Assembly (NCBI GenBank): GCA_001643675.2
Contig: LSRY02000050.1
Span: forward strand, 594,553-658,552
DNA from: Monocercomonoides exilis PA203
Lineage: Eukaryota; Protista; Preaxostyla
Length of the DNA: 64,000 nucleotides
Direction: 5' to 3'
Of the stretch, positions 7,898-64,000 are shown one piece after another (positions within the stretch are counted from its first letter, which is position 1; the number at the start of each line of letters is the position of its first letter). Position numbers and translations under genes: made by a program. The notes beneath the pieces were generated by a model, which ran no database searches, was not told where the DNA came from, and saw only the letters and a list, made by a program, of their open reading frames with translations.

Positions 7898-7908
7898 AAT
7901 TATAAACA

Positions 7909-8961
7909 ATGAGCGTACTTCAGCCTGGACTCGAGTCGAGTCTGAATTCCTTATCTCAGGATATCAGCGGACCTCCGAGCAGCGTGGGATTTACGCAATC
8001 CACCTCCAGCATATTTTCCTCATCAGCCGCAACTATTCCAACACAAAATATTGCAATGAGCCTTGAAAACACATCAAGCCGAGAAGATCACAATGTTACA
8101 AACTTGCTCCATCCACCTTTCCAACAATCTTCAAGCTCTTCTCATCCCCAAATATTTCCAAATCCAACAACACTTGAGCAAAACCCAATCCATTCTCCGC
8201 AAACGACGCAGCAGCAGAATATTCTTCAAACGATAGACACTTCGCAAGAACACCTGATGGAGAAAGACAATTATCAACCGAACTTCAAATACATTTGTTT
8301 CTCGCTTTTCGGAGATAAAACAAAGGATTCAATATTCGAAATGCATTTTCATGAACAAGCAGGCTCAAATGCCACAATTTACTCGAATTTCTCAGCACCT
8401 CCGTTCATTCCAGAGGCTATCCACCCAATTCAAAGAACATCAAATTGGTGCTACGACGCTCTAGAACAAAATGGATTCAAAATCGAAGAAAAATTGATAT
8501 CGGCAATAAAAGCGCTTATAATTGGAAAAGATATGGTAGATAAGGGATTGGACCCAAGTGCAGTTTTGGCTGATTCTTTCTTAATGATGGTTAAAGCACT
8601 CCAGGAAGCGAGAACACAAAGGATCCAAGCAGTTTATGGGTTCAGAGCCGCAAGGACATTAAAAGAAGAAGATGGAGACCAATTGCTTTCCAAGAGGCAA
8701 CTTGAAACGTTGAAGATCGCTGAGCCGAAACAAAAATTGCTTCCTCGACGGCAGGGATGGATCAGACCGTACACAAATACATTCTCACTTAAAAACCAGT
8801 TTTTTCGGACAAGAAGGATCCCATTTACAAGAAGAAAATTCAGTTCAAACAGCAGCAGAAGCTCCCAGAGAACCAGCAGAACTTGGAGCTCCAACCAATG
8901 GGATCCTCGAAGAAAGTTGGAGGAAGAACAAGACTCTTTCTCAAGAACTGGTCCGAAATAG
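7909..8961 (+). CDS. DIRS ORF1, putative Gag-like protein
   Basis: 350-aa ATG ORF starting just inside the left ITR, upstream of and overlapping the RT ORF; basic Arg-rich C-terminus. Assigned by position only. Confidence 0.7.
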   Translation: MSVLQPGLESSLNSLSQDISGPPSSVGFTQSTSSIFSSSAATIPTQNIAMSLENTSSREDHNVTNLLHPPFQQSSSSSHPQIFPNPTTLEQNPIHSPQTTQQQNILQTIDTSQEHLMEKDNYQPNFKYICFSLFGDKTKDSIFEMHFHEQAGSNATIYSNFSAPPFIPEAIHPIQRTSNWCYDALEQNGFKIEEKLISAIKALIIGKDMVDKGLDPSAVLADSFLMMVKALQEARTQRIQAVYGFRAARTLKEEDGDQLLSKRQLETLKIAEPKQKLLPRRQGWIRPYTNTFSLKNQFFRTRRIPFTRRKFSSNSSRSSQRTSRTWSSNQWDPRRKLEEEQDSFSRTGPK

Positions 8962-31678: not shown

Positions 31679-34150
31679 TTAAGTGGAACTGGAACAGTTA
31701 TCTTCTTCATCTTCATTATCTTCTTCATCTTCATTATCTTCTTCATCTTCATTATCTTCTTCATCTTCATTATCTTCTTCATTATCTTTTTCTTTTTCTT
31801 CAACGTCATCGTCTTCGTCTTCTTCATCAGAAAGAATAACAGCTTCCTTCCTTCTTTCATCATCTTCAAAATCCCATTGGCAAACATTTTGAGAAAAAGT
31901 GCATCTTGGTTCATTATCAAAATTATCTGTTTCTTCGTCTGTTTCTTCTTCGTTTCTCGGGATTTCAAAACGCTTGCACTTTTCTTTTTTCCCTTCATAT
32001 CTTCCAAAAATAAGTGCAAGCGTTTGTTTCCCAGTGGGAAATGACAAGCAAGAATACTTCTTGCTTGTTGCTTGTTTCTTTGCTCTTTCGAAAGAAACAG
32101 CAACCCTCACTTCACTCCATCTTGTATTTTCTTCTTCGTTGTATGGAGCAGCGAAAATTCTTCCTTCTTCGCTGCTCCATAAAAGATTTAATTTTAAATC
32201 TTTAACCCTCAGCTTCGGTGAGACTCTCACCTGAAGCCGAGGGGTGTATGGGAGGAAGTGCCTATTGATTGAGGCACTTCCTATCTCATCTGTTGATGAG
32301 TCAAATCTTTTTTTGAAAAAAGAGATTAGCTCATCAACAGATGAGATGTCCTCTCGAGAGTTCCGCGTTTCTCTCGAGAGGACCCCAAATTCTCCATCCA
32401 CTTCGCTTTTTCCGTGACCTTCAGCAAAAAAGGAAAGCGAAGTGGATGAGAATTTTTTTAAAACAGAAGATGAAGGATAAAGAACAAAGTGGAGGAATGC
32501 TCCATTTCGAAAGTGTGGGCCACAATCAGCCCACACTTTCAAAGAGGTTATTTGTTTAAATTTATTTTTTGTTTTACTGAGGACTGTTTCAAGGCAGTCA
32601 ACTGCGTATCTGCTGTCTTTTGATAAAACAGTTGAAAAGAAGTTGAAACAATTTTTGACAATAATGTTTTTTTGAATCATGTAAACAATTATTCCCAGAT
32701 GAGAGACCTCTTTCTTTTCATAGAAATCTCGAGATATTTGAGTTTGTCTGATTGGAAGAGTCCAGTTTTGCTTGAAGTCAAGCAAAACCAGAATCTCACT
32801 TTCTTTTAGCTCATCAAGATTTTTGTTGAACTTTTCTCTTTCTTTCTTTTCAATAATTTCGTGCTTTTTCAAGATTCTTAATTCTTCTTTTTCATCATCT
32901 GTTAATTCGATTGTTTTCATTTTTATTTCCAAACAATTCTTTCGATAACACAGATTGCATATATCTGTTCTGTTTTTTGATTTCTTCACGTGTTTAGACA
33001 TTTTACAAAAATGAGAAAAACTTATATTTAAACCTGTTTCTTTTCTCATATTTTTCCAAAGTTCATATTTTGTGGAAAAGAAAATTCTTTCTTCATTCTT
33101 TAAAAAAATTCTTCCATCTATTTCATTCATCAAATTTGTGTTTCTATTGATACAATCTCGTTCGAATATAATACGGTTTTTTCTTTGTTCTTCTTCTGTT
33201 GTTAGTAAAGTTGTTTCCTTAGAGATAAATATGGTGGATGAGGCAACTGGTGCGGATGATGTTAACAGTGAGACAGATGAGGCAGAAGATGTGAATGAAG
33301 AAAATAAAGCAGATGAAGCAGACGAGGCAGATGAATCAAATGAGGCAGTGGAGCGAGCTGGTTGTGCTGCTAAGGCAGAAGGGGTGAATGAAGAAAATAA
33401 AGCAGATGAAGCAGACGAGGCAGATGAAGCAGACGAGGCAGTGGAGCGAGCTGGTTGTGCTGCTAAGGCAGAAGGGGTGAATGAAGAAAATAAAGCAGAT
33501 GAAGCAGACGAGGCAGATGAAGCAGACGAGGCAGTGGAGCGAGCTGGTTGTGCTGCTAAGGCAGAAGGGGTGAATGAAGAAAATAAAGCAGATGAAGCAG
33601 ACGAGGCAGATGAAGCAGACGAGGCAGTGGAGCGAGCTGGTTGTGCTGCTAAGGCAGAAGGGGTGAATGAAGAAAATAAAGCAGATGAAGCAGACGAGGC
33701 AGATGAAGCAGACGAGGCAGTGGAGCGAGCTGGTTGTGCTGCTAAGGCAGAAGGGGTGAATGAAGAAAATAAAGCAGATGAAGCAGACGAGGCAGATGAA
33801 GCAGACGAGGCAGTGGAGCGAGCTGGTTGTGCTGCTAAGGCAGAAGGGGTGAATGAAGAAAATAAAGCAGATGAAGCAGACGAGGCAGATGAAGCAGACG
33901 AGGCAGTGGAGCGAGCTGGTTGTGCTGCTAAGGCAGAAGAGGTGAATGAAGCTGATATTGAATTGATGTTGCATTTGTTCCTAATTGTTTTTTGAATTTG
34001 ATCATGATCGATATATGGATATTTAAAAGTGTTTGCATGTGAAGAAGATAAATTTGTTGAATTGGACAGTTGAAATAAAATGGGTGAAGAAATGTTCTCA
34101 ACTGTCAAGTGTGATGGATTTTTCAAAAAATCAATATCATCATCTGACAA
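31679..34150 (-). mobile_element. Sola-like DDD cut-and-paste transposase with an internal 31-aa repeat and acidic tail
   Basis: Motifs TDICNLC, LLDFKQNW, DFYEKKEVSHLG, KVWADCGPHFRN and FFAEGHGKSEVDGEFG match the DF-x-x-N / D-x-G-x-HF-x-N / HGK-x-x-x-DG layout I associate with Sola-type transposases. Further 5' coding fragments lie at 34267-34764. TIRs not identified. Confidence 0.7.
33289..33951. repeat. 93-bp tandem repeat, about 7 copies, inside the transposase ORF
   Basis: gtggagcgagctgg recurs at 33348, 33441, 33534, 33627, 33720, 33813 and 33906; copies are essentially identical. Confidence 0.95.
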
Positions 34151-37049
34151 ATCAATGAGTAACTTTTTGTTTTTTTTTTTTGAGTTTTACTACTTTCAGT
34201 TGTATTCCGCTTTAACCACCATTCACAAAATAGAAAATCATAATTCGATAAAGCTGAATATTTATATTATTTTATTGAAGTTAAAGATGTGAAGTGCAAA
34301 CGATTTCTAACTTTTGGTAATGCTTTTCTTTCACTGTTTTGAACAGAGTAACCGTGAAGTTTGAGCATCCGTTTTGCATGGTCAACATTATTTTTTGTGC
34401 AATTCCATTGAGAATTGCGCAAATCTTTTTCTGTAACAGCATTCAAAAACGACTCCAACAAAAGAATCTTGTTCTTTTTATCAAGAATGTCGTATAACAA
34501 ACCGGAATGAAACAGCAAATTGTTAAAATTTTATATCCATTGAAAACGATTTTCAAAATTATTTTTTAATGACTGAAAATACTAATAGATACAACCATTC
34601 AGTGCTTCATTCAAATACTGTAGAATTTTGTTTCCTTCCAAAGAATGTTCCAAAAAATATTGCATGAACAATTTTTCTTCATGTTTTGCATAAATTTGTA
34701 AAAATTTGAAAAGTTCTTCACATAGTTGAGATTTCCTGCTTGAAGATAATTGCGAAAAAAGCATTTTTTAAAAAAAAATTTCTTTATTAATGGGAACGGA
34801 ATGATCAACATTTTTTGATCATTTTTGATCTAATTTTCAGATCAGTTAAACGTTTGCGACTTTTCAAAAAGAATTACCCATATGAAACAGAAAAAAATAT
34901 CTAAATGAATCTTAGGAGCTTAACAGTTTTGTCTTCGAAATTTTATCATAATTGAATGCAAATAACAATAACAGGAAAGATTAGAAACGTTTTCATCAGC
35001 AAAGTGCAAAAGATAATATTCGTAAGAGATGAATCTGAATAAAAGCTAATATATCTGTTTATGAATGAAAAAAATTTGATGAAATCAAGTTATAAAGTGA
35101 AATATTAGAGGAATAAGTGATTGGACTATTTTCATCAAAACAAAACAGTTAGCCCAAACATCAATTTTTGCAAATCAATTTATTCAATGTGATTCTTTGA
35201 GTTTTCCAAAAAAGTCAAAAAAAATGCAATTCATTTTTGTTTCAAATCTGTCAATGAAAATAGCGTTTATTTATTTTTCAAGGAAATAATATGGGGAGAA
35301 ATACGAACTTTCAAGCCTTTTTGCACAAAGCACAAATAAATTGTTTCACTCATAACTTTATTTCACTTTCTCAGATTTCAAAATAAATTTGATTTTCATA
35401 TCTGTAAACATGCATCATTGAAATCAAAACAAGAAGTTTTCCAACATTTTACGAATGTCAAAAAATGGACATATTTCTATTGTGTTTTTTTGTCTCAAAA
35501 AGTCAAAGAAAAGTGCATAATTTTTCAACGAAGATGTTTGAATCAAAATATTTTGTCCCATATAAAGTGTCAAAGTCTGTAATTCCAAACGATAGAAAAA
35601 ATCTTCTTCTTTTTCAGATTTTGATTTTTGTCGACTTGGAAAATAAGTTCTCCTATATTGTTATAATTTCCAGACCCATTGAAATTTTGAAACAATGAAT
35701 TGAATCTTAAATTAAAACCTGATTCATTTGAAAGAGGTCAGTTGATTTTATTGTATCGCATCTACGAAGTTGAATTGAACGTTGCAATTTCAGCACAGAT
35801 TTTTACGAAAAATATTAAAAAAATTGCAAATGTCACTTCATTAAAAGTGTTATCGATTATTTTGCGATTGAAGCACATAAAATTTCCAAAGTTTTGTTTT
35901 TGATTCTGTCTTTTTTTTCCAAACACGAAAACATGAATATTTCTTTCCAAAAGTCTATGTGTGAAAATGAAAGATAGTCAACTTAGGAAATCCCAGACAG
36001 AGTTTTTTTTTTCGAAAAATCATTTGAAATATGCTTTGTTCTGCGAAATTCTGCATAATATATTTTGATCACATGTTTGAATTTTTTTTGATATGTTCCT
36101 TTTGTTTAATTTACAAATAAAATTAAAATTTCTTAATTATATTTTTATTTTCTGTTCTCACTAAGAAAACTTCATTAAAATGGAAACAGAACCAAAACAA
36201 TGTTATCATTTCCATTCAAGAAAAGTTTCGTGAGCGGGAACAGAAATTTGATTGAAATATGAAATATTTTCTTTATCTGAAAATAAAGCAAAAGGAAATT
36301 TTCAAACGAATTTAGATAATTTTTTTTGTTCAGTTCCCTATTCGAATCGCTTTCATATGTCACGTTTTTGTTTCGAGAATCATTTTGCAAAGCATGTGTA
36401 ATATTTCAGATTAGATTTTCTGTTGGATTTTTGTGTTAATATGCATAAGCAATTTTTTTTTGTAATATACGAATATTATTTGAATTAAATGGGTTTATTT
36501 GAATTGAAGAAGTGAATTCAAATTTCATCCAATAATTCTATTTGGTGAATTGTTGAGCTGTATTGATTATGTGAAATAAGGTTTGTTGGATAAGGTGATT
36601 TGCCAGAACTCATAGAGAAAAACTGAAATTTATTGTTTGTTTTTATTTATCAAGTTGTTTTATGATCAAACATGTCATTCAAAAAAGCTTTTGATATTTA
36701 TTTTCTCATAACAAATTCATTTACAAATGATTTTTGCGGAAGGAATCATTGAAAAGATTTCAAATACCATTAGAAATAATTAATTTGTTAAAAGTTATTC
36801 GGAAAAGACTGCATTTGTTCCAATTGTTTTTTTAATTTTAGTTTTTGAAGTTTAATTCGAATAAACATTGTTGATTTTATCTTGCTGTTTTCATTTGAAT
36901 AAAATCATTCTATTCCAACTCCATCTTACAATTATTCAATTATATCTTTTGGAAAAAAAAAAAAATCCATTTTCAATCGTATTCCATTTCTTGCATTCTT
37001 ATTAATTGAACGAAACGTGAAAATAATAAAAAAAGAAACAAAAAAATCA

Positions 37050-47600: not shown

Positions 47601-48205
47601 CTTCTTTGTTGAAAAAAGACTTTCCATTGAAATCAGAATTGGAAAATGGCAATTAATACAATTTGTGTTCAAATGTCAAATTGTTTTTGAAATGTTGAAA
47701 ATATTCTTTTGCCACAGTTCATGACCATGGATTTTTTTTGAAAATTCCTTAAAACCATGTTTGATGATGCATATGCCAGGTAAATTGACTTTTCACAAGT
47801 ATTTTCTGGAAAACCTTAAAGTGGTGATTGTTATTGAAAGAATGGATAATGAAGCGCACATCAGAAGTGGAACGATAAAAATCCTAATGATTTAGTAATT
47901 ATTGGATTGCATTTGCTATTTTCTTTATTTCTCTTCATTATTCAACGTTGTAGAAAAATATCAAATAAATACTTTTTCAGAAAAAATCAAGTTTTGAAAG
48001 AAAACATATTATCCCGAATAACCGGCAATAAAAGAATAATCATTCCTATTTTTTTTTTCAGTGCTGTCAAATCATGAAGAAAAAAATATTTCATTATAAT
48101 GGTCTGCCCCATAACACAATAGAATTCTTCAAAGAACTAATATTTTTGTTGAATCTCGAATCTGTGAGCAACAAACAATACCATTCAACCTTTAATAACA
48201 AGAAA

Positions 48206-51200
48206 ATGGGAAGTAGTATTTCTACAATAAATCTTGAGAAAGATAGTAAAGGAAGGACAGAGGCAATGCGTTGGATTATCAGAAAAAAATCAGAGCCACC
48301 AATGTGGATGAGGCACAATATAACGCTGGGAGATAAGGAGGGAAAAACAATGGCAATGATATGGATCGAAAGTGTGAAGACAGAGCCGCCGGAATGGATG
48401 AGACATGAAGCAACATTACCTGAAAAGGATGGGAGGATGATGATCGATTATTGGAAAATGAATGTAAAGGATGATCCACCAAGTTGGTTGAGCCATGACT
48501 ATTCATTGTGCGACAAAGAAGGAAAAACAGCGGCGATGCGCTATATCATCGAGAAAAAGGAAGAACCGCCAAAGTGGATGAGGCACAGAAACACGCTTTG
48601 CGACAAAGATGGAAGCACGATGGCCATGCACTGGATTGCAAATGTCAAAACAAAACCGCCAAAATGGATGAGACACGATATAACGCTGGGAGATAAGGAG
48701 GGAAAAACAATGGCAATGCTGTGGATTCAGTTCGTGAAGACAGAGCCGCCGGAATGGATGAGGCACGAAGCAAGATTTTCTGAAAAGGATGGGAGGATGA
48801 TGATCGATTATTGGAAAAGCAATATCGGGAGTGCACCACCGGAATGGATGAATTATAAAAATACAAAGAGATACAAAGATGGAAGAACAGATGCCATGCT
48901 TTGGATTATTAGAAAAAAATCAGAACCACCTGAATGGATGAGACATGAAATTACTCTCGCTGATAAGGAGAGAAAAACAATGGCCATGCTGTGGATAGAG
49001 AATGTAAAGACAGAACCTCCAGAATGGATGAGACATGATATAACATTTGGAGATAAGGAGGGAAAAACAATGGCGATGTATTGGATTCAGTTTGTGAAGA
49101 TAGAACCGCCGGAATGGATGAGACACGATATTACACTTGAAGATATCTTTGGATCTACAATGGCCATACTGTGGATTCAAAATGTCAATTCAAAACCTCC
49201 AGAGTGGATGAGGCACGATGCTGCGCTTAAAAATAGGAGAGGAAAGACAATTGCCATGGAGTGGATAATCGATAAGAAATCAGAGCCACCAGTGTGGATG
49301 AGACATGACATCACTCTGCGCAACAAGGACGGGCAGACAATGGCCATGCTATGGATTCAATTTGTTCAAACCAATCTGCCAGTGTGGATGAGGCACAATA
49401 TAACGCTGGGAGATAAGGAGGGAAAAACAATGGCAATGATATGGATCGAAAGTGTGAAGACAGAGCCGCCGGAATGGATGAGACATGAAGCAACATTACC
49501 TGAAAAGGATGGGAGGATGATGATCGATTATTGGAAAATGAATGTAAAGGATGATCCACCAAGTTGGTTGAGCCATGACTATTCATTGTGCGACAAAGAA
49601 GGAAAAACAGCGGCGATGCGCTATATCATCGAGAAAAAGGAAGAACCGCCAAAGTGGATGAGGCACAGAAACACGCTTTGCGACAAAGATGGAAGCACGA
49701 TGGCCATGCACTGGATTGCAAATGTCAAAACAAAACCGCCAAAATGGATGAGACACGATATAACGCTGGGAGATAAGGAGGGAAAAACAATGGCAATGCT
49801 GTGGATTCAGTTCGTGAAGACAGAGCCGCCGGAATGGATGAGGCACGAAGCAAGATTTTCTGAAAAGGATGGGAGGACAATGGCCATGTATTGGAATAAC
49901 ATTTTAAAGACGGAACCCCCAAGATGGATGAGGCACGATATCACGCTTACTGATAAATATGGATGGACAATAGCGATGCACTGGGTTTATAATGTGAAGA
50001 CAGAACTACCAGAATGGATGAGGCATGATATCACACTTACTGATAAGTACGGATGGACAATGGCCATGCTGTGGATTTCAAAATTGAAGACAGAACCTCC
50101 AGCATGGATGAGGCACGATATTGCATTTACAAATCATAAAGGATGTTCAATGGCCATGCTGTGGATTCAAAATGTGAATACAGAGCCACCAGTGTGGATG
50201 AGACATGACATTACACTTCGCAACAAGGACGGGCAGACAATGGCAATGATATGGATTAAATATGTGAAGACAGAGCCACCGGAATGGATGAGGCATGACA
50301 TTACACTTCGCAACAATTTTGAATCAACGATGGCCATGTTGTGGATTCAAGAAGTCAAAACAGAACCACCAGAATGGATGAGACATGAAATTACTCTCGC
50401 CGATAAGGACGGGCAGACAATGGCCATGCTGTGGATTCAAGATGTCAAAACAGAGCCACCAGTGTGGATGAGGCACGATATTGCATTTACAAATCATAAA
50501 GGATGTTCAATGGCCATGCTGTGGATTCAAAATGTCAAAACAGAACCACCAGAATGGATGAGACATTGTGTCACACTTGCTGATAAGGAAGGAAAGACGA
50601 TGGCAGATCATTGGAAAAGCAATTTCTGGAGTGCACCACCGGAATGGATGACTAAAGATATCACACACGCTGATGAATATGGATGGACAATGGCCATGCT
50701 TTGGATTGTGGAGAAAAATACAGAGCCACCAATGTGGATAAGACATGAAATTACTCTCGCTGATAAGGATGGACATACAATGGCAATGCTTTGGATATGG
50801 AGTGTAAAGACAGAACCACCACATTGGATGAGACATGATATCACACTTCGCAACAATTTTAAATCAACGATGGCCATGATGTGGATTCAATTTGTTCAAA
50901 CCAATCCACCAGCGTGGATGAGACACGATAATACACTTTTCAACAAATATGGACAAACAATGGCCATGCTGTGGATATGGGGTGTAAAGACAGAACCACC
51001 TGAATGGATGAGACATGAAATTACTCTCGCTGATAAGGAGAGAAAAACAATGGCCATGCTGTGGATAGAGAATGTAAAGACAGAACCTCCAGAATGGATG
51101 AGACATGATATAACATTTGGAGATAAGGAGGGAAAAACAATGGCGATGTATTGGATTCAGTTTGTGAAGATAGAACCGCCGGAATGGATGAGACACGATA

Positions 51201-53014
51201 TTACACTTGAAGATATCTTTGGATCTACAATGGCCATACTGTGGATTCAAAATGTCAATTCAAAACCTCCAGAGTGGATGAGGCACGATGCTGCGCTTAA
51301 AAATAGGAGAGGAAAGACAATTGCCATGGAGTGGATAATCGATAAGAAATCAGAGCCACCAGTGTGGATGAGACATGACATCACTCTGCGCAACAAGGAC
51401 GGGCAGACAATGGCCATGCTATGGATTCAATTTGTTCAAACCAATCTGCCAGTGTGGATGAGGCACAATATAACGCTGGGAGATAAGGAGGGAAAAACAA
51501 TGGCAATGATATGGATCGAAAGTGTGAAGACAGAGCCACCAGTGTGGATGAGACATGACATCACTCTGCGCAACAAGGACGGGCAGACAATGGCCATGCT
51601 ATGGATTCAATTTGTTCAAACCAATCTGCCAGTGTGGATGAGGCACAATATAACGCTGGGAGATAAGGAGGGAAAAACAATGGCAATGATATGGATCGAA
51701 AGTGTGAAGACAGAACCACCAGAATGGATGAGACATGAAATTACTCTCGCCGATATGAACGGGCAGACAATGGCTATGTTCTGGATTTCAAAATTGAAGA
51801 CAGAACCTCCAGAGTGGAAGAGGCACGATGCTGCGCTTAAAAATAGGAGAGGAAAGACAATTGCCATGGAGTGGATAATCGATAAGAAATCAGAGCCACC
51901 AGTGTGGATGAGACATGACATCACTCTGCGCAACAAGGACGGGCAGACAATGGCCATGCTATGGATTCAATTTGTTCAAACCAATCTGCCAGTGTGGATG
52001 AGACACGATGCAACACTTACTGATAAGGACGGATTTACAATGGCAATGATATGGATTAAATATGTGAAGACAGAGCCACCGGAATGGATGAGGCATGACA
52101 TTACACTTCGCAACAATTTTGAATCAACGATGGCCATGTTGTGGATTCAAGAAGTCAAAACAGAACCACCAGAATGGATGAGACATGAAATTACTCTCGC
52201 CGATAAGGACGGGCAGACAATGGCCATGCTGTGGATTCAAGATGTCAAAACAGAACCACCAGAATGGGTGAGACATTGTGTAACACTTTGCAACAAAAAT
52301 GGGTGGACAATGGTGATGAAATGGATTGAATATGTGAAGACAGAACCTCCAGAATGGATGGTTTATGATAATAAACTTGGCGATGATAAAGGAGAGACAA
52401 TGGCAATGAGGTGGATAATCGATAAGAAATCAGAGCCACCAGTGTGGATGAGACATGAAATCACACTTGGCAACAATTATGGAAATACAATGGCCATGCT
52501 TTGGATATGGGGTGTAAAGACAGAACCACCTGAATGGATGAGACATGATATCACACTTGGAAATAAACACGGATTGACAATGGCGATGATATGGATTGCT
52601 ATCGTGAAGACAGAACCACCAGAGTGGATGAGGCATGACACAACTTTGTGTGATGCTATGGGATGGACGATGGTCATGCACTGGATTCAGTTTGTGCAAA
52701 CAAAGCCACTATTGTGGATGAGACACTACAAAACACTTGCTGATAAGGACGGATGGACGATGGCCATGCATTGGATAAGATATGTTAAAACAGAGCCGCC
52801 ATTGTGGATGAGACACGAAAATACACTTTGCAACAAAAATGGGTGGACAATGGCAATGCTGTGGATAATATTTGTGAAAACAGAGCCACCAGAATGGATG
52901 AGACACGAAAAAACAATAAAAGGTGGTTGGGGAAAACAGACAATGGCCATGCTCTGGATTAAATATGTGAACACAGAACCGCCAGAATGGATGAAGACTG
53001 ATAAATCCTTATGA
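48206..53014 (+). CDS. About 1600-aa protein of about 53 tandem 30-aa Trp/Met-rich repeats (ankyrin-like D-x-x-G-x-T motif); predicted N-myristoylated
   Basis: Repeat consensus TEPPEWMRHDITLxDKxGxTMAMLWIxxVK (90-bp unit). The ATG at 48206 gives MGSSIS, matching the MGxxxS myristoylation consensus. The open frame extends upstream to 48074. Confidence 0.85.
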   Translation: MGSSISTINLEKDSKGRTEAMRWIIRKKSEPPMWMRHNITLGDKEGKTMAMIWIESVKTEPPEWMRHEATLPEKDGRMMIDYWKMNVKDDPPSWLSHDYSLCDKEGKTAAMRYIIEKKEEPPKWMRHRNTLCDKDGSTMAMHWIANVKTKPPKWMRHDITLGDKEGKTMAMLWIQFVKTEPPEWMRHEARFSEKDGRMMIDYWKSNIGSAPPEWMNYKNTKRYKDGRTDAMLWIIRKKSEPPEWMRHEITLADKERKTMAMLWIENVKTEPPEWMRHDITFGDKEGKTMAMYWIQFVKIEPPEWMRHDITLEDIFGSTMAILWIQNVNSKPPEWMRHDAALKNRRGKTIAMEWIIDKKSEPPVWMRHDITLRNKDGQTMAMLWIQFVQTNLPVWMRHNITLGDKEGKTMAMIWIESVKTEPPEWMRHEATLPEKDGRMMIDYWKMNVKDDPPSWLSHDYSLCDKEGKTAAMRYIIEKKEEPPKWMRHRNTLCDKDGSTMAMHWIANVKTKPPKWMRHDITLGDKEGKTMAMLWIQFVKTEPPEWMRHEARFSEKDGRTMAMYWNNILKTEPPRWMRHDITLTDKYGWTIAMHWVYNVKTELPEWMRHDITLTDKYGWTMAMLWISKLKTEPPAWMRHDIAFTNHKGCSMAMLWIQNVNTEPPVWMRHDITLRNKDGQTMAMIWIKYVKTEPPEWMRHDITLRNNFESTMAMLWIQEVKTEPPEWMRHEITLADKDGQTMAMLWIQDVKTEPPVWMRHDIAFTNHKGCSMAMLWIQNVKTEPPEWMRHCVTLADKEGKTMADHWKSNFWSAPPEWMTKDITHADEYGWTMAMLWIVEKNTEPPMWIRHEITLADKDGHTMAMLWIWSVKTEPPHWMRHDITLRNNFKSTMAMMWIQFVQTNPPAWMRHDNTLFNKYGQTMAMLWIWGVKTEPPEWMRHEITLADKERKTMAMLWIENVKTEPPEWMRHDITFGDKEGKTMAMYWIQFVKIEPPEWMRHDITLEDIFGSTMAILWIQNVNSKPPEWMRHDAALKNRRGKTIAMEWIIDKKSEPPVWMRHDITLRNKDGQTMAMLWIQFVQTNLPVWMRHNITLGDKEGKTMAMIWIESVKTEPPVWMRHDITLRNKDGQTMAMLWIQFVQTNLPVWMRHNITLGDKEGKTMAMIWIESVKTEPPEWMRHEITLADMNGQTMAMFWISKLKTEPPEWKRHDAALKNRRGKTIAMEWIIDKKSEPPVWMRHDITLRNKDGQTMAMLWIQFVQTNLPVWMRHDATLTDKDGFTMAMIWIKYVKTEPPEWMRHDITLRNNFESTMAMLWIQEVKTEPPEWMRHEITLADKDGQTMAMLWIQDVKTEPPEWVRHCVTLCNKNGWTMVMKWIEYVKTEPPEWMVYDNKLGDDKGETMAMRWIIDKKSEPPVWMRHEITLGNNYGNTMAMLWIWGVKTEPPEWMRHDITLGNKHGLTMAMIWIAIVKTEPPEWMRHDTTLCDAMGWTMVMHWIQFVQTKPLLWMRHYKTLADKDGWTMAMHWIRYVKTEPPLWMRHENTLCNKNGWTMAMLWIIFVKTEPPEWMRHEKTIKGGWGKQTMAMLWIKYVNTEPPEWMKTDKSL

Positions 53015-53166: not shown

Positions 53167-54390
53167 CTTTCTTTTGAAGTGACTTTCTATCTTTCTACAT
53201 ACTCTAGGAAATTCTTCAAACAAGTATCATTTTGATATCCTTTCTATAAATCTTCAATTATTTTTTATTCTATTTCATTTTGTCTCAGCAATTTATGCGA
53301 TTCATTTCATAGGTTTAGATTAGGGTTATATCTTTGTTGATTATATTTATGGGATCCGACAAAAGCCTAACCTAGTTTATTATAATTTTCATTTTCAATT
53401 TTGACAAAAAATATTGAACTATTTGAATATTGTTTGATGTTTTAATGATATATATTTCCTTTGAAATTTGATTTTGATTGGAAAGAATATGAAAATCTAT
53501 TTCTAATTATCGAATCTTGACGAATTAGCAACAAAACGCACAAAAAAATTGTTGGATTAGTGAAAATGGATTAATGGAATATATATATGAAATTAATAAA
53601 ATTGTCAATGAAATTGCTCGTTTTTCATTTTCATTGATTCAAACAATATCTTTTTTTGATCGCTTTTCGAATCCAAAAAAAGGTCTTAATTTTCGATTGG
53701 AAGTTTTGAGATAATAATAAAAACATAATTGCAATTGTATTTTCATTTTTCAACTGTTTTATGTATTTATCTTTTTGGAAAATCTGATGATCAAAATGAA
53801 ATATTTATTTAGAATAAATCAATATATTTCATTAAACATTTTAACCAACTGAGCTTCTGCACACTTTAAACATAAAACATACTGCATTATTGGGAAGTGT
53901 TCATTGGCTAACCACATGATTAAAGTACCAAACCGTTTTGTATGAAGTAATTTTTGATTTCATTCAAACTTATGTGTTTTTCACATCAATTCCAAATAAT
54001 GAACAAACATTTATATCTATCCGTTAAGTAACAAAGGAATACATTCCAATTTCATTCAGTTTTTTATCTGGATGAGTTGTGAATCCAAAAAGGAAACAAA
54101 TTGAAACTTTCAAATTTTTGAGAGCTGAAATATGTGGTTTTTCATTCAAACAATTTTAAATGATTCTAAAAAATATCAGAAAGGTGAATTTCTTTTCATA
54201 AAACGTCAAAGGAATATATTGTTTTTCGTAAATAACAAACGAGAAGTTATATAATTGGATCAAAACTTCTTGATTTAAAGAAATAATAACTTCGTTAATC
54301 AAAACTGAAATGCAAAGTTATAGAGCATTCCGAGATTCTTAGTATGCACTTTATTGATTAATTTATTCATTTTTCATTTTTTGCTTCTTT

Positions 54391-57300
54391 ATGTTGCAGT
54401 TTTCCTGGAGTCAAAGTGGGAAGTTCGTAATTTCTTCTTTAAAATTGTTATTCATAATTTATTTATTTCTTCTTATTGATACAGAAAAAATATCAAAAAT
54501 TCGAAGTTGCAGTGGCGAAGAACAATCTGACAGTGACGAAAGTGAAGAAAGCGAAGAAAATGACAGCAATGTGAATGAAGCAATTCTTTCTCCATCAGAA
54601 CCCGGATTTTTTTCTCCTCCTTCCTCGACTAAACTCACAGTCACTCATTCACCAATTATCACCCCTCCTCATTCTCCTTCTTCCTCTCTTTCGATTCCCT
54701 GTCCAAGTTCTCCTCTTCGTATTTCTTCGGTTGAACAGGAATATGAAGATGTCACAGCGACTCCGATGCTGTATTGTCCTCGTCTTCTTTATTCTGTTCC
54801 TACGAAGAGCAGTGCTGCCACTCCTTCAAAAGAAATCGAAAAAAAACCATATTCCAATTCAATATCTGCGTGGTTGATGAAGTTTGTGGAAGATGATGAG
54901 ATCCCAGTTGCTGATGATTTTTCCACACTTCAAAAAAATTTAGCTCCTCAACCCTCATTAGATCATCTTCGAGAATTTGCTCATCATTCACCATATCCTC
55001 GACCTTTATATGCATCTGGAAAAGAGAATCTTGATGAAAATTGCATCAACCATTTGGATTCAAATGAAAACAAACCATTAACAAAAAAGAAAAGGAAAAA
55101 AGCTCAATCAGCCTCTTCTGCTTCTGCTTCTTCTTCTTCTTCTTCTTCGTCTTCCACTTCATCAACTTCCTCGAAGCAAATATCATCTTCAACAGAATCT
55201 TCAAACGACCCAATGCAAACTTCAACAAAATCCAAATTTAAAGATTCGAGAAAATGCAAAAAGAGAATGAAATACACAAGCAGAGTTCAATTCAAAAACG
55301 ATACAAAATCAAGTTCACAATATCATTCTCAAGCATGCATTAGGAGTTCAACAGATTGTTCAACAATTAGTTTATCTTGTCACAAGATGACAAATAAGAA
55401 AACAATGGAAATGGAGCGAACAATAAAGGAAAAAGAAAACAAAAAAAGTGATTATGCTGAAAAAGAAGACCTGAGAGATGATCAAAATGAAAAATCCAAC
55501 CAAAGCAGTTGCAGATACTATCATCAAAGAAAATCGAAAACGGAATTCATGATAAACCTTCCATCAATTTTGGATTCATGGATTGATGATTCAGTTTTAT
55601 CCGAGGATGAAAAGGATTTATTTATGCCAGAAAGTGGACAAAACAACTTTCAAGGAGAAGATTCTTCATCACAATCATTCTGTGCATCAGAAGATGAAGA
55701 CAAAGAAAAAGAATTATTTAAACAAGAAAGCTCAGAATCAACTGAAACAGAAAAGGATTTTCAGCATTCATTATGCCATCCATTGAAAAAGAAACGAAAA
55801 ACAATCATCGAGAATGATCCGTCACAAATGCAAAAGTCAAAAAGCAGGAAAGTGTCAGTTCTTGTGAATGAAAGCAATATTTCTATTATTAAAGAAAAAC
55901 TTGAATCATTGGAAAACGATGAAAATACGATTAATGATTCCATTTCTTTTGAACAAGAAAATGCACATGCATTAGATTTGAAAGATATTTACGGAAAAAT
56001 CAACACCTCCACACTTGAGCCTCTTCCTGACGATTCAAATTCAACAACACCAATGATTACAACACCAAGATACGCATATGATACCCCCACAAAATTTGAA
56101 ACAGTTTTGAGATCACATTCAAAAGAGGAATTACAACAATACACAGAAAAAGGATTGCCTTATTGTGATGAAACTGTTAAAACTCACAAATGGGTTTATG
56201 GGATGTTTCTTGATTACTGCAAAGCAGCTAAAAAAGAACCGTTTCCTTTGAAGGCAAAACCAGTATATGGTTTTGTAAAATTACTTGGAATAGCAGTTGG
56301 TTATTCAATCGGAACAATAACGCATGGAATCAAATCATCTTTATACAATATTTCCGAAACAAGAACAGGAAAACCTGTTAAAGATAAGGTTAAAGCAAAA
56401 TTCCATAGAGCAATACTGGAAATCAAAGCTTGGTACAGGAAAAGGAAAATGAAAGGATTTCCATTACCAAAAATGAGGAAGGAGAATGAGAAGAAGTGGA
56501 AAAAACAGCCCCTCATCGTCACAGATTTGCAACGTATTTTGGAATGTTATCCCGACTGGATAGTTGAGAAGCCCCAAGAAGCTTCCCTGTTTTTATTCGC
56601 TTAATCAACAGGAGCTCGGGCACATACTTGTGCTCATGTAAGATTGAAGGATATCATCCGAGTTTACTCTCCTCCAAACTCAAATTTTATCAAAGTGACG
56701 TTTAATCTCGAGTGTGGGAAAGGGTGGAATGGTGACAATCACTGTGTCACAGTGGAAGGAGCAATTAATGAAAAACATCAACTCAACGTAATATGGTGGC
56801 TGGAGCAGTATTTGGTGGAGGAGTTTGGACTCTCTCTCACCAATTTTGACAAATGGGAGCTTAAGGAGTTGGAGGAGCAATTTATTTGGCAGCTTAGAAA
56901 GGGAGCAATGAGAGTACGACTGAAAAAAAGAGCCGTCCAAGCAGGTTATCCAGATAACCTGTTCGGATTTCATTCCTTCAGATCAGGCTTTATTTGCTCA
57001 GCTTTGCTGAAAGCAGGGGAAAACCAGGAAAAGAGGAAACAGGCGCTGGAGGCAACAGCTTTTGTAGGTAATTGGATTTTAATATCAAAATCTCAGTGGG
57101 AATATGTGAAAGAGACTGAGAAGGCTGTAATTATTGGTAATAGGCTTGGATTTCCAGATGAAACTGTAGAGGATGATGTATATTACGATATGGCACTTAC
57201 AAGTCCACAAGTTTATCATAACATCAAATTAAACGAGCCAATATGGAAAAAGGAATCAATTATACTCACATTTGACTTTTTTGTTCTTGAGATTTTGAAA

Positions 57301-58319
57301 GCCACATGCAGTGAGCTATACAGTCCAAACCGGATATAATCACGTCGAATATAATCACATTCGTATATAGTCACAATTTTCCATGCACCGACATTTTTTG
57401 CTTGTTTTTCATTCATTTTTCATCGCATATAATCACAGGGCTGAAAATATATAATCACAATTTTTATCATTATGGGTGGATTTTTCAATGAAAAATCGAT
57501 TTTTTGATCAAAAATTTCAATTTTTCGCTTTTTCAGAAATGTGCTCAAATAATTCAAAATAATATGTATTTACGCAAAAAATTAATTTCGCATGTTAAAA
57601 ATGCGTTTTTATGAAGAATTTTCAAAAATTAAAAATTTGTCCCAAAATTAATTAATAAATAAAATAAAATTTATTTTTTTCTGTGTAAAGCAGCATCGTA
57701 TATTATCACATTCGGATATAGTCACAAAAAGTTGTGCAAAAACCGATGTGATTATATCCGGTTTAGACTGTATTACCCATATAGTTGTGTGATACGATTG
57801 AATCGGTTGGCTGCTTTATCGTATTTGAATAATCATAATGTCAAGTGTGAAAAGGGAAACACATTCATGAAGCAAGCTAGAATCAATATCTTACAGAAAC
57901 TGAAGGAGAATAAAAATGTCGTGGAAGCAGCTCGAAGTTATTTAGCAGGAATACAAGCGTATTTAAATGGAAGAACGAGACTCAAATTTCAAAGACCAAA
58001 AGAAAGAGTTCCACTTAGAGAGAATAGACCAATCAACAAGTTACTTGGAACAAAATCAAGACGCAGATGGACAGCTGAGGAAGATAGGATACTGATGAAA
58101 TCATTTTTAGAGTTCAACGACTTCAAAGCAGCTAGCAAAGCATTGTTTGAAAGAACGGAAAATTCATGCAGAGATCGGATTCGTACTCTAATTAACGATA
58201 AGTCAACTGATTTTTATGAGAGGAAATTGACAAAATATGTGCAATACAAAAAGGATCATCCTCAATTGGGGAATTTCAACTCTTCCAAAAAGAAAGAAAA
58301 AGGAGAAAAGAAGAATTGA
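54391..58319 (+). pseudogene. Disrupted tyrosine recombinase-Myb/SANT fusion gene (Crypton-like)
   Basis: Reading through the TAA at 56602 gives LFLFA*STGARAHTC (box I Arg), then FGFHSFRSGF (HxxR), GNW...WEYVK (Trp/Tyr). Excising the MITE and one TA joins ...CSELY to YPYSCVIR... in frame, leading to RRRWTAEEDRILM...RTENSCRDRIRTL (Myb). 5' end uncertain. Confidence 0.85.
57321..57770. mobile_element. 450-bp non-autonomous Tc1/mariner(pogo)-type MITE
   Basis: 27-bp TIRs (cagtccaaaccggatataatcacgtcg / cgatgtgattatatccggtttagactg, 2 mismatches); TA target-site duplication at 57319-57320 and 57771-57772; repeated internal tat(a/t)(a/g)tcaca-like motifs. Confidence 0.92.
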
Positions 58320-60873
58320 CATTCTTTTCAATTGTTTGGAAGTTCATTTTCCTCAGAGAGTTATCTGTTTGTTAATATTCTCATTTTTATTTTTTCAATT
58401 TCAATCAGTTCGGCAAATCATTAGTCTATTCACACATGCACATTCCTAAAGAATAGGAGGTTGAAATATCAAAAATCTATCCACAAAATGATTTTTTTCA
58501 AAGTTTGATCATTAATGTTAAAAAAAGGAACAGACATATGCCAAAAGAGTTTTATGCTAATTGATTAAAATGCACAGGCATTCAAATAAGTTTTACCGAT
58601 GTGACACAATTATTCTAAGTTAGTTTATAGGATTTTCTGCTTAATAAACTGTTTGTTTCATAGAAAAGAAGTTTCATTCCTTGCAAATTTCTTTCTGAAT
58701 TAATTTGAATTTGTTATTTTGGGGAACAAAATAAATATTGTTTTATCTGATGAATTGAGAGATAAATGAAGTGTTAATATTTGGTTGTCACATTAATATT
58801 CAATATTACAATGCGTTGCTGTTGGAATGCAGTTTCATTCCAGGATCAATGCAATGATGCACTTCAGAGAAAACGAAGAGTGTTGCATTCCTAAAGGATA
58901 ACGAAGAATAACATACACAGCAAGGAAAATAGTAGAAACTCAATTTGAAAAGCTTGGATCGATGAAAAAGTTTGAATATCGAAAACGGGAAAAACGAACT
59001 ATCTATTTAACATTGAAGTTGATGGAATAATTTAATACAAAAGAATATAATAATGAACAAAAAGGTTATTCTTTCATTTTTGAAAGATAGTCATGAAATC
59101 ACTGATATAATTGATGAACAATATATCAACATTACACATGAAATTGGGGAAAGTGTAAAAGTTGAAATAACTGTCGTTCAATGAGTAAAAATTGTTATCA
59201 TTGGTTTTGAGATTGTGAAATTTGGAAATATTCACATCTTAAATTTAATTTTTTATTTATATTCAAGAATGAAAAAAAAATGAAACATTTGGATAAAATA
59301 AAAACACTATCACACTGATGAACAAGAGGATTTGGATTTAAAATCAATTGCATTGCAGTTGAAATGATTGAAAAGCTAAGTTTGATTTGATTCAAACACT
59401 GCAAATGACAAAGAAGATTTCTTGCAGCACTCGAACGAAATGCATTGCACTAACATTATTCAATCGATATGATTGATGTTCATAAAATGGAGGAAAAGGA
59501 ATTCAACATAAAATAAAAAGTGCTGAAATCTTCAGAATGAGACAGCATAATTTCAGAATTTTACAACCTAGTTTGAAAGTCAACACACAATTCAATATAT
59601 TGCAGAGAAATTTAAATTTTATTGCTCTTATTTCAAGCAATAAATGGATTTTCAACAATTCATTTCTTATTCATTATTTAATGGCTTCGATCGTGATCGC
59701 AAACTGATGAAAAAAGATTTTTTTCAAGCATGACCAAAGTTTATCAAGCAGTTACTCTATTATTGGCATAAAATAAATATGTGTGTATCTAGCATTGAGA
59801 AGGTTAGGGTTAAAGGGCGTTGAAATATGCCTGAATTATTCCAGCAAATATTAATAATTGATTATCACAAAATTATCAATCAATTTCTCTATCATGACTT
59901 ATAATATTATTGAATGATTATTTCTATTTATTCAAAAAGAATAATAAAATAAATTTTTTAAAATCTATCATGTACTCGGTTAGGGTTAAGCTTTTCGTTC
60001 GTTTAGTCTAGACGATTTTCATATATATATTAACCTAGACAATACATTCAAAACAAAGGGACAACTTTCATAGAAATAAATATTTTGTTTGAAAATTTCA
60101 CGATGATTGAATCAAAGTGTTTCAGAAATGTAGATTATATTAAGAGTTATTCAACAAAAAAATGTGTGTTGATATTGAAAATTTTTGACTAAAGTAGTTG
60201 GAAAAAAATGTTTGTTTTTTTGTCCAGTCATTTCTGGTCATTTCGAATTTTTTATTTTTTTCAATTTTTTTTCGATTCAGATCCAGTTTTTTGTGGTGAG
60301 ATCGATTGTAATATGGATGATTCATCATTCTATTCACTTTTTATCGAACAATATGGACTTTTCATTTTTCATGAAAATTTTATGAGAAAATTTTCGGTCA
60401 TTTTTTGGATCAAAAAAATTGTATCTCGATGAAAAAATTTTGCGAGACCTGAGACTTTACCAGCGTGTACTACATGTAATTTGTGAATTTTTGAAGTCAG
60501 TGTCAAAAATTCGAAAATTTTGAAAAAATTGATTTTTTTCATTAGCCAAGTCATATGTCAGGTCAATGAGAAAAAAGTTGAAAATATCGATTTTTGTGAA
60601 AATTTTTATTGGAAGATGATATTTCACCAAAAGTTCGGATAATTCGCGAATAGTCAGCTGAATTTTTTTCTCGGGCCAGATTGGTCTGGTTAGTGAGAAA
60701 ATGTGATATGAAGAATTTGACTGAAAAAGTGGTGATCTTAGATCAACGACCGAAAAATATGAGGTCTCAGATTCCTTTGATAATTGGCAGGTGGCAAGGA
60801 CGTGGTCCCCTTATAAACATACTCTAATCTAAATTTTTTCTACCGAGCGGTTGTGGCAGGGCAGTGCGGACAA

Positions 60874-63800
60874 GTTAGGTTAGGGTTAGGGTTCAAACTA
60901 GGTTAGGTTAGGGTTAGGGTTAGGGTTAGGGTTAGGGTTAGGGTTAGGGTTAGGTTAGGGTTAGGTTAGGGTTAGGGTTAGGGTTAGGGTTAGGGTTAGG
61001 GTTAGGGTTAGGGTTAGGGTTAGGGTTAGGGTTAGGGTTAGGGTTAGGGTTAGGGTTAGGGTTAGGGTTAGGGTTAGGGTTAGGTTAGGGTTAGGGTTAG
61101 GGTTAGGGTTAGGGTTAGGTTAGGTTAGGTTAGGGTTAGGTTAGGGTTAGGGTTAGGGTTAGGGTTAGGGTTAGGGTTAGGGTTAGGGTTAGGGTTAGGG
61201 TTAGGTTAGGGTTAGGGTTAGGGTTAGGGTTAGGGTTAGGGTTAGGGTTAGGGTTAGGGTTAGGGTTAGGGTTAGGGTTAGGGTTAGGTTAGGGTTAGGG
61301 TTAGGGTTAGGGTTAGGGTTAGGGTTAGGGTTAGGGTTAGGGTTAGGGTTAGGGTTAGGGTTAGGGTTAGGGTTAGGGTTAGGTTAGGGTTAGGGTTAGG
61401 GTTAGGGTTAGGGTTAGGGTTAGGGTTAGGGTTAGGGTTAGGGTTAGGGTTAGGGTTAGGGTTAGGGTTAGGGTTAGGTTAGGGTTCAAACTAGGTTAGG
61501 GTTCAAACTAGGTTAGGGGTTAGGTTAGGTTAGGGTTAGGGTTAGGGTTAGGGTTAGGGTTAGGGTTAGGGTTAGGGTTAGGGTTAGGGTTAGGGTTAGG
61601 GTTAGGGTTAGGGTTAGGGTTAGGGTTAGGGTTAGGTTAGGGTTAGGGTTAGGGTTAGGGTTAGGTTAGGGTTAGGGTTAGGGTTAGGGTTAGGGTTAGG
61701 GTTAGGGTTAGGGTTAGGGTTAGGGTTAGGGTTAGGGTTAGGGTTAGGGTTAGGGTTAGGGTTAGGGTTAGGGTTAGGGTTAGGGTTAGGGTTAGGGTTC
61801 AAACTAGGTTAGGGTTAGGGTTAGGGTTAGGTTAGGGTTAGGTTAGGGTTAGGTTAGGGTTAGGGTTAGGGTTAGGGTTAGGGTTAGGGTTAGGGTTAGG
61901 GTTAGGGTTAGGGTTAGGGTTAGGGTTAGGGTTAGGGTTAGGGTTAGGGGTTAGGGTTAGGGTTAGGGTTAGGGTTAGGGTTAGGGTTAGGGTTAGGGTT
62001 AGGGGTTAGGGTTAGGGTTAGGGTTAGGGTTAGGGTTAGGGTTAGGGTTAGGGTTAGGGTTAGGGTTAGGGTTAGGGTTAGGGTTAGGGTTAGGGTTAGG
62101 GTTAGGGTTAGGGTTAGGGTTAGGGTTAGGGTTAGGGTTAGGGTTAGGGTTAGGGTTAGGGTTAGGGTTAGGGTTAGGGTTAGGGTTAGGGTTAGGGTTA
62201 GGGTTAGGGTTAGGGTTAGGGTTAGGGTTAGGTTAGGGTTAGGGTTAGGGTTAGGTTAGGGTTAGGGTTAGGGTTAGGGTTAGGGTTAGGGTTAGGGTTA
62301 GGGTTAGGGTTAGGGTTAGGGTTAGGGTTAGGGTTAGGGTTAGGGTTAGGTTAGGGTTAGGGTTAGGGTTAGGGTTAGGGTTAGGGTTAGGGTTAGGGTT
62401 AGGGTTAGGGTTAGGGTTAGGGTTAGGGTTAGGGTTAGGGGTTAGGGTTAGGGTTAGGGTTCAAACTAGGTTAGGGTTAGGGTTAGGGTTAGGGTTAGGG
62501 TTAGGGTTAGGGTTAGGGTTAGGTTAGGGTTAGGTTAGGGTTAGGGTTAGGGTTAGGGTTAGGGTTAGGGTTAGGGTTAGGGTTAGGGTTAGGGTTAGGG
62601 TTAGGGTTAGGGTTAGGGTTAGGGTTAGGGTTAGGGTTAGGGTTAGGGGTTAGGGTTAGGGTTAGGGTTAGGGTTAGGGTTAGGGTTAGGGTTAGGGTTA
62701 GGGTTAGGGTTAGGGTTAGGTTAGGGTTAGGGTTAGGGTTAGGGTTAGGGTTAGGGTTAGGGTTAGGGTTAGGGTTAGGGTTAGGGTTAGGGTTAGGGTT
62801 AGGGTTAGGGTTAGGGTTAGGGTTAGGGTTAGGGTTAGGGTTAGGGTTAGGGTTAGGGTTAGGGTTAGGGTTAGGTTAGGGTTAGGGTTAGGGTTAGGGT
62901 TAGGGTTAGGGTTAGGGTTAGGGTTAGGGTTAGGGGTTAGGGTTAGGGTTAGGGTTAGGGTTAGGGTTAGGGGTTAGGGTTAGGTTAGGGTTAGGGTTAG
63001 GGTTAGGGTTAGGGTTAGGGTTAGGGGTTAGGGTTAGGGTTAGGGTTAGGGTTAGGGTTAGGGTTAGGGTTAGGGGTTAGGGTTAGGGTTAGGGTTAGGG
63101 TTAGGGGTTAGGGTTAGGGTTAGGGTTAGGGTTAGGGTTAGGGTTAGGGTTAGGGTTAGGGTTAGGGTTAGGGTTAGGGTTAGGGTTAGGGTTAGGGTTA
63201 GGGTTAGGGTTAGGGTTAGGGTTAGGGTTAGGGTTAGGGTTAGGGTTAGGGTTAGGGTTAGGGTTAGGGTTAGGGTTAGGGTTCAGGTTAGGTTAGGGTT
63301 AGGGTTAGGGTTAGGGTTAGGGTTAGGGTTAGGGTTAGGGTTAGGGGTTAGGGTTAGGGTTAGGGTTAGGGTTAGGGTTAGGGTTAGGGTTAGGGTTAGG
63401 GTTTAGCTTTAGGGTTAGGGTTAGGGTCAGGGTCTTAGGGTTAGGTTAGGGTTAGGGTTAGGGTTAGGGTTAGGGTTAGGGTTAGGGTTAGGGTTAGGGT
63501 TAGGGTTAGGGTTAGGGTTAGGGGTTAGGGTTAGGTTAGGGTTAGGGTTAGGGTTAGGGTTAGGGTTAGGGTTAGGGTTAGGGTTAGGGTTAGGGTTAGG
63601 GTTAGGGTTAGGGTTAGGGTTAGGGTTAGGGTTAGGGTTAGGGTTAGGGTTAGGTTAGGGTTAGGGTTAGGGTTAGGGTTAGGGTTAGGGTTAGGGTTAG
63701 GTTAGGGTTAGGGTTAGGGTTAGGGTTAGGTTAGGGTTAGGGTTAGGGTTAGGGTTAGGGTTAGGGTGCAGGTTAGGGTTAGGGTTAGGGTTAGGGTTAG

Positions 63801-64000
63801 GTTAGGGTTAGGTTAGGGTTAGGTTAGGGTTAGGGTTAGGGTTAGGGTTAGGGTTAGGGTTGGGGATTGGGATTAGGTTAGGTTAGGGTTAGGAGTTAGG
63901 GTTAGGAGTTGGTTAGGAGTTAGGTTAGGTTAGGGTTAGGTTAGGGTTAGGGTTAGGGTTAGGGTTAGAGGGTTAGGGTTAGGGTTAGGTTAGGTTAGAA
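60874..64000 (+). repeat. Telomeric (TTAGGG)n array with TTAGG, TTAGGGG and TTCAAACTAGG variants
   Basis: About 3.1 kb of TTAGGG with the G-rich strand running 5'->3' to the window end. Confidence 0.98.

Follow-up and report, generated by a model that had tools for sequence, protein, structure and literature searches.

Crypton-type elements encode a single tyrosine recombinase (YR), lack reverse transcriptase (RT) and long terminal repeats, and are proposed to pass through a circular intermediate, according to the available sections of their description, in which CryptonF DNA transposons carry the C-terminal DNA-binding domain GCR1_C (PMC3212892). CryptonV is characterized as microsatellite-specific in the part of a second source at hand (PMC8869645). 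Two further YR systems are linked to telomeres. In the accessible text of the respective papers, TATE of Leishmania braziliensis is a YR element that occurs in tandem clusters at a fixed position in telomeric hexamers (PMC6681497), and nimaviruses show YR-linked insertion into a telomere repeat motif, with reads spanning end, tract and end (PMC10871703).

We analysed a 64,000-nucleotide stretch of the Monocercomonoides exilis genome (the window), which contains a broken YR-Myb gene beside a telomere. The family to which this gene belongs shares with Cryptons the single YR and the absence of RT and long terminal repeats; it differs from them in that, as its relatives suggest, it targets the telomeric repeat and forms arrays. 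Its C-terminal domain is a Myb repeat and not GCR1_C as in CryptonF; searches of the Crypton-associated Pfam families gave no match, including none to DUF3504 or GCR1_C. CryptonV targets simple repeats, as this family probably does, and the two are set apart by the available description only (PMC8869645), so that they may overlap. TATE, in contrast, belongs to the retroelements and has RT/RNase H as well as split direct repeats; the available text mentions no Myb for it (PMC6681497). The present family has one gene and no RT. Nimaviruses measure about 280–400 kb, and their YR has an arm-binding/C2H2 and SAM-like N-terminus with no Myb mentioned in the portion at hand (PMC10871703). RT and RNase H, typical of DIRS and TATE, are absent from the family, which shows weak similarity to the YR of a DIRS element in the window. 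In Starship elements, which are large and carry cargo, the captain is a YR of the DUF3435 type that lies at the element's start. In contrast, units of the present family are 3.1–3.4 kb long and have no DUF3435 match. If Cryptons are taken in the broad sense of YR-only transposons, the family is probably a Crypton-like element. An element combining a lone YR with Myb was not found described in the literature searched, a scope that leaves Repbase Reports and subscription journals outside, and the available parts of PMC3537659 and PMC6759080 do not describe the family.

The sequence-only reading had proposed that three open reading frames (ORFs) are one gene in one frame, broken by a TAA and a MITE, and our analysis confirmed this. 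The premature TAA at 56602–56604 (+) interrupts the frame of the upstream ORF five codons 5' of the first catalytic Arg. Its suggested origin from a Leu codon is borne out by the closest paralogue (P0003), which has Leu at the matching position. An alternative genetic code was rejected because of this Leu and because long nearby ORFs are open in the standard code. In two of four sequencing runs, all from one sample that is possibly the window's own source, a contig carrying the same letter as the window at 56602 was seen beside a paralogue contig; total depth at 56602 was 22.4 versus 14.4 other in run X1, and 18.8 versus 11.1 in run X4. The 450-bp MITE at 57321–57770 is inserted in the linker domain, with TA at both flanks and 27-bp terminal inverted repeats identical at 25 of 27 positions. 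In the reads it is joined to many different flanks and its depth is far higher; in all four runs of the one sample, a contig of a paralogue spans the insertion site without it. Removal of the MITE plus one TA gives the exact in-frame fusion that had been predicted, since the two protein pieces abut without an indel on the intact paralogue P0171 (residues 652|653).

The length first given for the gene, about 1158 codons from an ATG at 54391, is arithmetically right, but its start codon is probably wrong, since this ATG is intronic in P0002, a named M. exilis gene model that agrees with the window gene at 97% over 946 aligned residues (stop region skipped). P0002 starts at 54310 and has two GT-AG introns (exons 54310–54341 and 54400–54422, then from 54485); a start of this type would give about 1145 codons by arithmetic. 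Checked against these exons, the probable start and a long low-complexity N-terminal region occupy 54310–56067 (+). The beginning of this region aligns with the paralogues P0175 and P0007, and its counterpart in P0004 has low pLDDT. The gene ends at 58319, and it is indeed the last one before the telomere, with no ORF above about 120 aa between its end and 60874. The window copy is an inactivated, dead relic of a multi-copy family.

The proposed order of YR and single Myb repeat held up, with a helical linker between the two, and the fusion is family-wide. The core-binding and catalytic domains of the recombinase lie at 56068–57180 (+), as assigned by alignment and by the Cre match of the P0004 model. 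The catalytic set of the window gene comprises R743, K777, H861, R864, W895 and Y905 (numbering of P0001); these six residues are invariant in 27/27 aligned proteins and all present in the window's frame, and they correspond to the R-K-H-R-H/W-Y set of the tyrosine recombinase superfamily. More widely, R-K-H-R-W-Y is kept in 148 of the 149 relatives that cover all six sites, among 192 aligned proteins. Of the two domains, Myb was recovered by Pfam. The window's own YR was missed by Pfam, NCBIfam and the PDB sequence search, and was recognised by alignment and by the fold of a paralogue; a PHROG integrase profile matched it at E 0.005. The fold was examined on an AlphaFold2 model of the intact paralogue P0004 (mean pLDDT 74.3), whose best structural match is Cre (Foldseek E 1e-6; Z 18.0, rmsd 4.8, 290 residues aligned). 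The match covers the core-binding and catalytic domains at 15–17% identity. A lox-like site geometry is a second, inferred point of likeness to Cre. The family differs from Cre in its additional linker and Myb, and in a spacer that the target matches only in part.

With the recombinase region as query, 27 proteins were identified among 4594 candidates (8 from M. exilis, 4 from Blattamonas nauphoetae and 15 metagenomic or other), of which 20 have a Myb-type Pfam match (E up to 0.05) and four a sub-threshold Phage_integrase match. When 1.84 billion representatives were searched with a profile, 307 matched at E up to 1e-30, and the best 150 of these 307 were examined. Relatives with an unbroken catalytic set were found in protists and metagenomes. 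Nor do homologues end before the Myb region: 94 of the 96 proteins with at least 270 residues after H-S-x-R match a family-built Myb profile, and Pfam Myb was detected in 40/41 members that had been chosen for having the C-terminus. In the ESM Atlas, integrase clusters were found, with no named YR-Myb cluster among the matches listed. Two scans of viral contigs and a search of prokaryote genomes yielded no relatives; the single prokaryote motif-scan match had no recombinase nearby and was taken as chance. Copies are numerous within a genome and belong to several deep subfamilies, split or broken ones included; the M. exilis copies are spread over several distant clades (FastTree, midpoint root, no support values), and the oxymonad copies have long host-like N-termini.

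The remainder of the conserved helical linker domain lies at 57773–58058 (+). Its model folds well (pLDDT 90.6) and gave no Foldseek match beyond Myb, no clear structural match and no TRFH match. The single Myb repeat follows at 58059–58199 (+), with R-D-R-I-R in its recognition helix; it scores 25.4 bits with Pfam PF00249 (cut-off 24.4), PF13921 is also above its cut-off, and the PDB matches of the family profile are Myb entries only. The family consensus R-T-N-V-D-C-K-D-R-W-R has the spacing of the hTRF1 helix, R415...L420...R423-W424-R425, as given in the available part of PMC2377444. Lys, Asp and Arg in helix 3 are the base readers of the telobox, according to the accessible text of PMC8867601. 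K-D-R is exact in 34 of 116 family Mybs, K/R-D-R/K occurs in 53 and D plus R/K in 72; the window Myb has R-D-R, with Arg in place of Lys, and nine units from one TTGGGG-bearing host have Glu (5/9), Tyr (2/9) or Asp (2/9) at the Asp position. TRF1 and TRF2 likewise carry a single C-terminal Myb; they differ in that the family linker has no TRFH match and that c-Myb profiles score as high. Per domain, profile bits were 28–31 for c-Myb/B-Myb, 22 for TRF2 and 19 for TRF1, so that the family Myb fits TRF1/2 no better than c-Myb, while the structural identity of one member (L002) is 40–41% to hTRF1 and 35–37% to c-Myb R1, slightly favouring hTRF1. The family Myb is therefore not clearly closer to TRF than to c-Myb. 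It is plausible that this repeat may bind telomeric DNA.

A link to telomeres had also been proposed, and it is supported by telomeric tracts that flank relatives and by the placement of paralogues at contig ends. In a metagenome scan of 21 loci, with a tract defined as at least two telomeric units, 13 loci had tracts, of which 19 were on the gene's strand and 2 on the opposite strand (0.39 in shuffles). In eleven of these 13 loci, TAA/TAG is read as Gln and the repeat is TTGGGG; the eleven appear to be one host, probably a ciliate. Since these 11 loci appear to represent one host and 2 of the 13 one element, the loci amount to only about four independent hosts. The TTGGGG host has nine distinct units with 37–66% protein identity, each beginning directly after a tract of 2–7 repeats located about 890–960 nt 5' of the catalytic motif; four complete units measure 3068–3199 bp. 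Overall, the units in metagenome loci are single-gene, 3.1–3.4 kb long, and arranged head-to-tail between short telomeric tracts. No RT motif was found in the other ORFs of five complete units and one near-complete unit. One unit precedes a different unit in each of L011, L012 and L013, and two units were found both after an AT-rich flank and after another unit; this order was read from short-read contigs and could be an assembly artefact, with the outer flank visible over only 5–27 nt.

In a host with TTAGGG repeats, L004 starts after (TTAGGG)3, while the contig of L002, which is 99% identical to L004, terminates in (TTAGGG)19. L003 closes on itself as a 3412-bp unit, a contig that a collapsed tandem array would equally give. 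Stretches that look like telomere repeat in translation are present in four protein models, and Blattamonas P0034 ends in such a stretch. No telomeric tract was found at L001, where 1.2 kb upstream is available, or at L020. At L007 two tracts lie downstream and on the strand opposite to the gene, L005 has an inverted word only, and L017, L019 and L021 are too short to tell. Rfam detected only a tRNA in L007 and one sub-threshold match in the window.

The units begin with a shared pattern. The spacing GTT-N9-(A/T)AC was present in 10 of 11 left ends examined from three hosts, and the eleventh has ten bases in place of nine. We infer from this pattern a lox-type left end in which two 6-bp half-sites, the second inverted, are separated by a 7-nt spacer. 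Integrated copies have telomere repeat as the outer left half, and of the spacer the first 2–3 bases alone match the telomere. Mismatched coupling sequences are found in Tn916 and CTnDOT. Phaeovirus YRs recombine on two bases of homology, as stated in the available part of PMC13236599. The geometry is close to that given for YR sites in the accessible section of PMC3212892, inverted repeats of 11–13 bp around 6–8 bp, but the arms are shorter. At the L003 junction, a perfect 6-bp inverted repeat surrounds 7 nt, and the left half is not telomeric; it is the exact reverse complement of the right half, as would be expected of joined element ends. The left and right ends of units differ. Both abut telomeric repeat of variable length, in which a terminal direct repeat of 4–6 bp, as in Cryptons, would be hidden.

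In the window, a candidate left end at 53312–53378 (+), placed as an inferred boundary, consists of degenerate telomeric repeats and the inverted word CCTAACC at 53366. Within 1–60870, TTAGGGTTA occurs only at 53320, 59804 and 59980 (0.12 expected on both strands), and these sites outside the telomere bracket the gene on the gene's strand. The telomeric word GGTTAGGGTTA at 59802–59812 (+) is the candidate right boundary. Depth is single-copy up to about 59800, and a higher-depth repeat starts directly after; at 59809 and 59978 the depth changes in a step and contigs begin. The second telomeric word, at 59978, splits two further repeated blocks at 59813–60873 (+), which are possibly non-autonomous units; the sequences before 59802 and before 59978 are 74% alike over 46 nt. 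The telomere itself, (TTAGGG)n, occupies 60874–64000 (+), and the window copy thus lies 2.6 kb from a true telomere. An element span of about 53329–59801 is tentative, because a left-end weight matrix built from distant relatives did not rank the window's left end. Neither RT nor DDE transposase was found between the candidate ends, which also have no terminal inverted repeats or long direct repeats.

The position of the other M. exilis copies was estimated from the accession order of named records, which rises with contig size throughout. The 29 records lie on 21 contigs and represent 22 loci in a genome of 18,152 genes in 82.3 Mb, as reported in the available part of PMC8767320. All 15 accession gaps that span at most 5.5 similar-sized contigs are within 0.20 of a whole contig number (mean 0.076, a value reached by 0 of 200,000 uniform draws); this gap filter was set after the data had been seen, and without it 19 of the 21 gaps lie within 0.20. 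Only 2 accessions separate two loci that are on different contigs. The accession order places the 22 loci at contig ends, which are not necessarily telomeres, since repeats themselves can break contigs. In this assembly, 10 of 101 contigs have two telomeric ends and 65 have one, so that 85 of 202 ends are telomeric, according to the same partly available source (PMC8767320). Four adjacent pairs belong to different subfamilies, like the metagenome arrays, and four pairs of near-identical copies (98.7–99.7%) are on different contigs. The six locus tags looked for do not occur in the supplements of PMC8767320. For Blattamonas, positions derived from accession order were judged too uncertain to use.

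The sequence-only reading had left a choice between a YR-only element and a domesticated recombinase; our results favour the mobile element over the domesticated gene. We consider it probable that the family is a Crypton-like, single-gene DNA transposon that targets telomeric repeats. Such an element would excise as a circle and then integrate into telomeric repeats, to which the Myb repeat would likely tether the enzyme. Recombination would take place at two 6-bp half-sites around a 7-nt spacer, 2–3 nt of which would match the target. After integration, telomere repeat would form the outer left half, and an inverted telomere-like word that belongs to the element would form the inner half. Successive insertions would produce head-to-tail arrays whose genes face the chromosome end, and older copies, among them that in the window, would be pushed inward and decay. 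The introns fit a DNA route and not an RNA route. A wider claim, towards which we lean slightly, is that this family of single-gene DNA transposons extends over several protist lineages, having captured a telomere-type Myb alongside a Cre-like recombinase, uses host telomeric repeats as half-sites, adapts to TTAGGG or TTGGGG, and builds arrays at chromosome ends.

The ancient conservation of the catalytic residues and Myb, the contig-end placement and the long host-like N-termini of the oxymonad copies would also suit a domesticated subtelomeric gene family, which would have a host role at chromosome ends, such as telomere recombination or the resolution of end fusions, and would have spread by subtelomeric exchange. 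This explanation is unlikely, as it sits poorly with a high copy number per genome, divided among several deep subfamilies that include broken and split members, with the scatter of M. exilis copies over distant clades (FastTree, midpoint root), and with sharp unit ends, telomeric tracts between units and mixed unit order. The same tracts also weigh on a different proposal, namely a DNA transposon that has telomere-like ends of its own and little target preference; contig-end placement would then arise from repeats breaking assemblies, and the telomeric position of the window copy would be incidental. The lack of tracts at L001 and L020, the inverted tracts at L007, the element-borne telomere-like words at the left ends and the fact that most contig ends are not demonstrably telomeric point this way. 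However, junction tracts hold between 2 and 7 repeats and L002 terminates in 19, element units are stacked in a single orientation, and the window copy is 2.6 kb from a true telomere, and we regard this proposal as improbable as well.

We give least weight to the idea that the YR gene has come loose from a larger element, either a TATE-like retroelement or an endogenous virus, that supplies other functions in trans. Telomere-inserting YRs are known from TATE (PMC6681497) and nimaviruses (PMC10871703), as far as these sources are available, and a DIRS-type element lies in the same 64-kb window. Yet the complete 3.1–3.4 kb units have no RT motif, no relative is found on a viral contig in two scans, the match to the window's DIRS recombinase extends over just 39 columns at 15% probability, and introns are present; this origin is very improbable.

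Target-specific DNA transposons are rare in eukaryotes, according to the available part of PMC8869645, and in the accessible text of the papers cited here, the telomere specialists TATE and nimaviruses are retroelements or large viruses (PMC6681497, PMC10871703). We marginally favour the view that the present superfamily is to DNA-only elements what telomeric retrotransposons are to retroelements, and that it represents a natural integrase specific for telomeres. Oxymonad genomes have a large fraction of unclassified repeats, as noted in the available portion of PMC8767320, and the family puts a name to part of it. If our reading is correct, it would suggest that targeting can recruit a Myb of the telomere type, and it would offer a minimal system open to testing that might also serve as a tool for insertion at telomeres. 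It would also represent a new route by which a 3-kb, one-protein element may colonise and remodel chromosome ends.

Besides the tyrosine recombinase (YR)-Myb gene, the window holds a DIRS-type retroelement with overlapping ORFs at positions 7906–12397, comprising an RT/RNase H region (8793–10808) and a Phage_integrase YR that ends at 12397; its similarity to the YR-Myb family is only faint. An 835-aa ORF with 93-bp tandem repeats (31679–34186, minus strand) gave a weak match to DUF7869 and is possibly a transposase relic. Next to the YR-Myb element, on its chromosome-internal side, an ORF of 1660 aa (48032–53014) consists of approximately 49 tandem 30-residue W/M-rich repeats, for which comparison with Pfam revealed no credible family.

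Several members of the YR-Myb family (P0013, P0016, P0017, P0019, and P0020) have a CxxC...CxxxC zinc finger at the N-terminus, which is treble-clef-like and matches PF09889 weakly. The 2064-aa member P0141 combines an N-terminal ubiquitin hydrolase domain with a second integrase match at the C-terminus, and this architecture is either a true fusion or a gene-model artefact. In the metagenome locus L002, a short stretch in the 3' region of the element (2680–2810) translates into a histone-fold-like fragment similar to NF-YB; it is possibly a captured host piece. The source label of P0021, a family member on a 2.3-kb contig, is a bacterial MAG, which is likely due to eukaryotic contamination.

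Sequencing depth rises across the repeated blocks that precede the telomere array (59809–60873). In other contigs, the telomere repeat is joined at 60335, 60517, and 60630 within these blocks, a pattern that points to telomere healing at several positions. Five copies of the telomere variant TTCAAACTAGG lie within the array, at 60892, 61485, 61502, 61798, and 62460, and its reverse complement, AACCTAGTTT, is present twice outside the array, once on each side of the gene (53369 and 59565). This variant could reflect telomerase slips, or it could be a site linked to the YR-Myb element.
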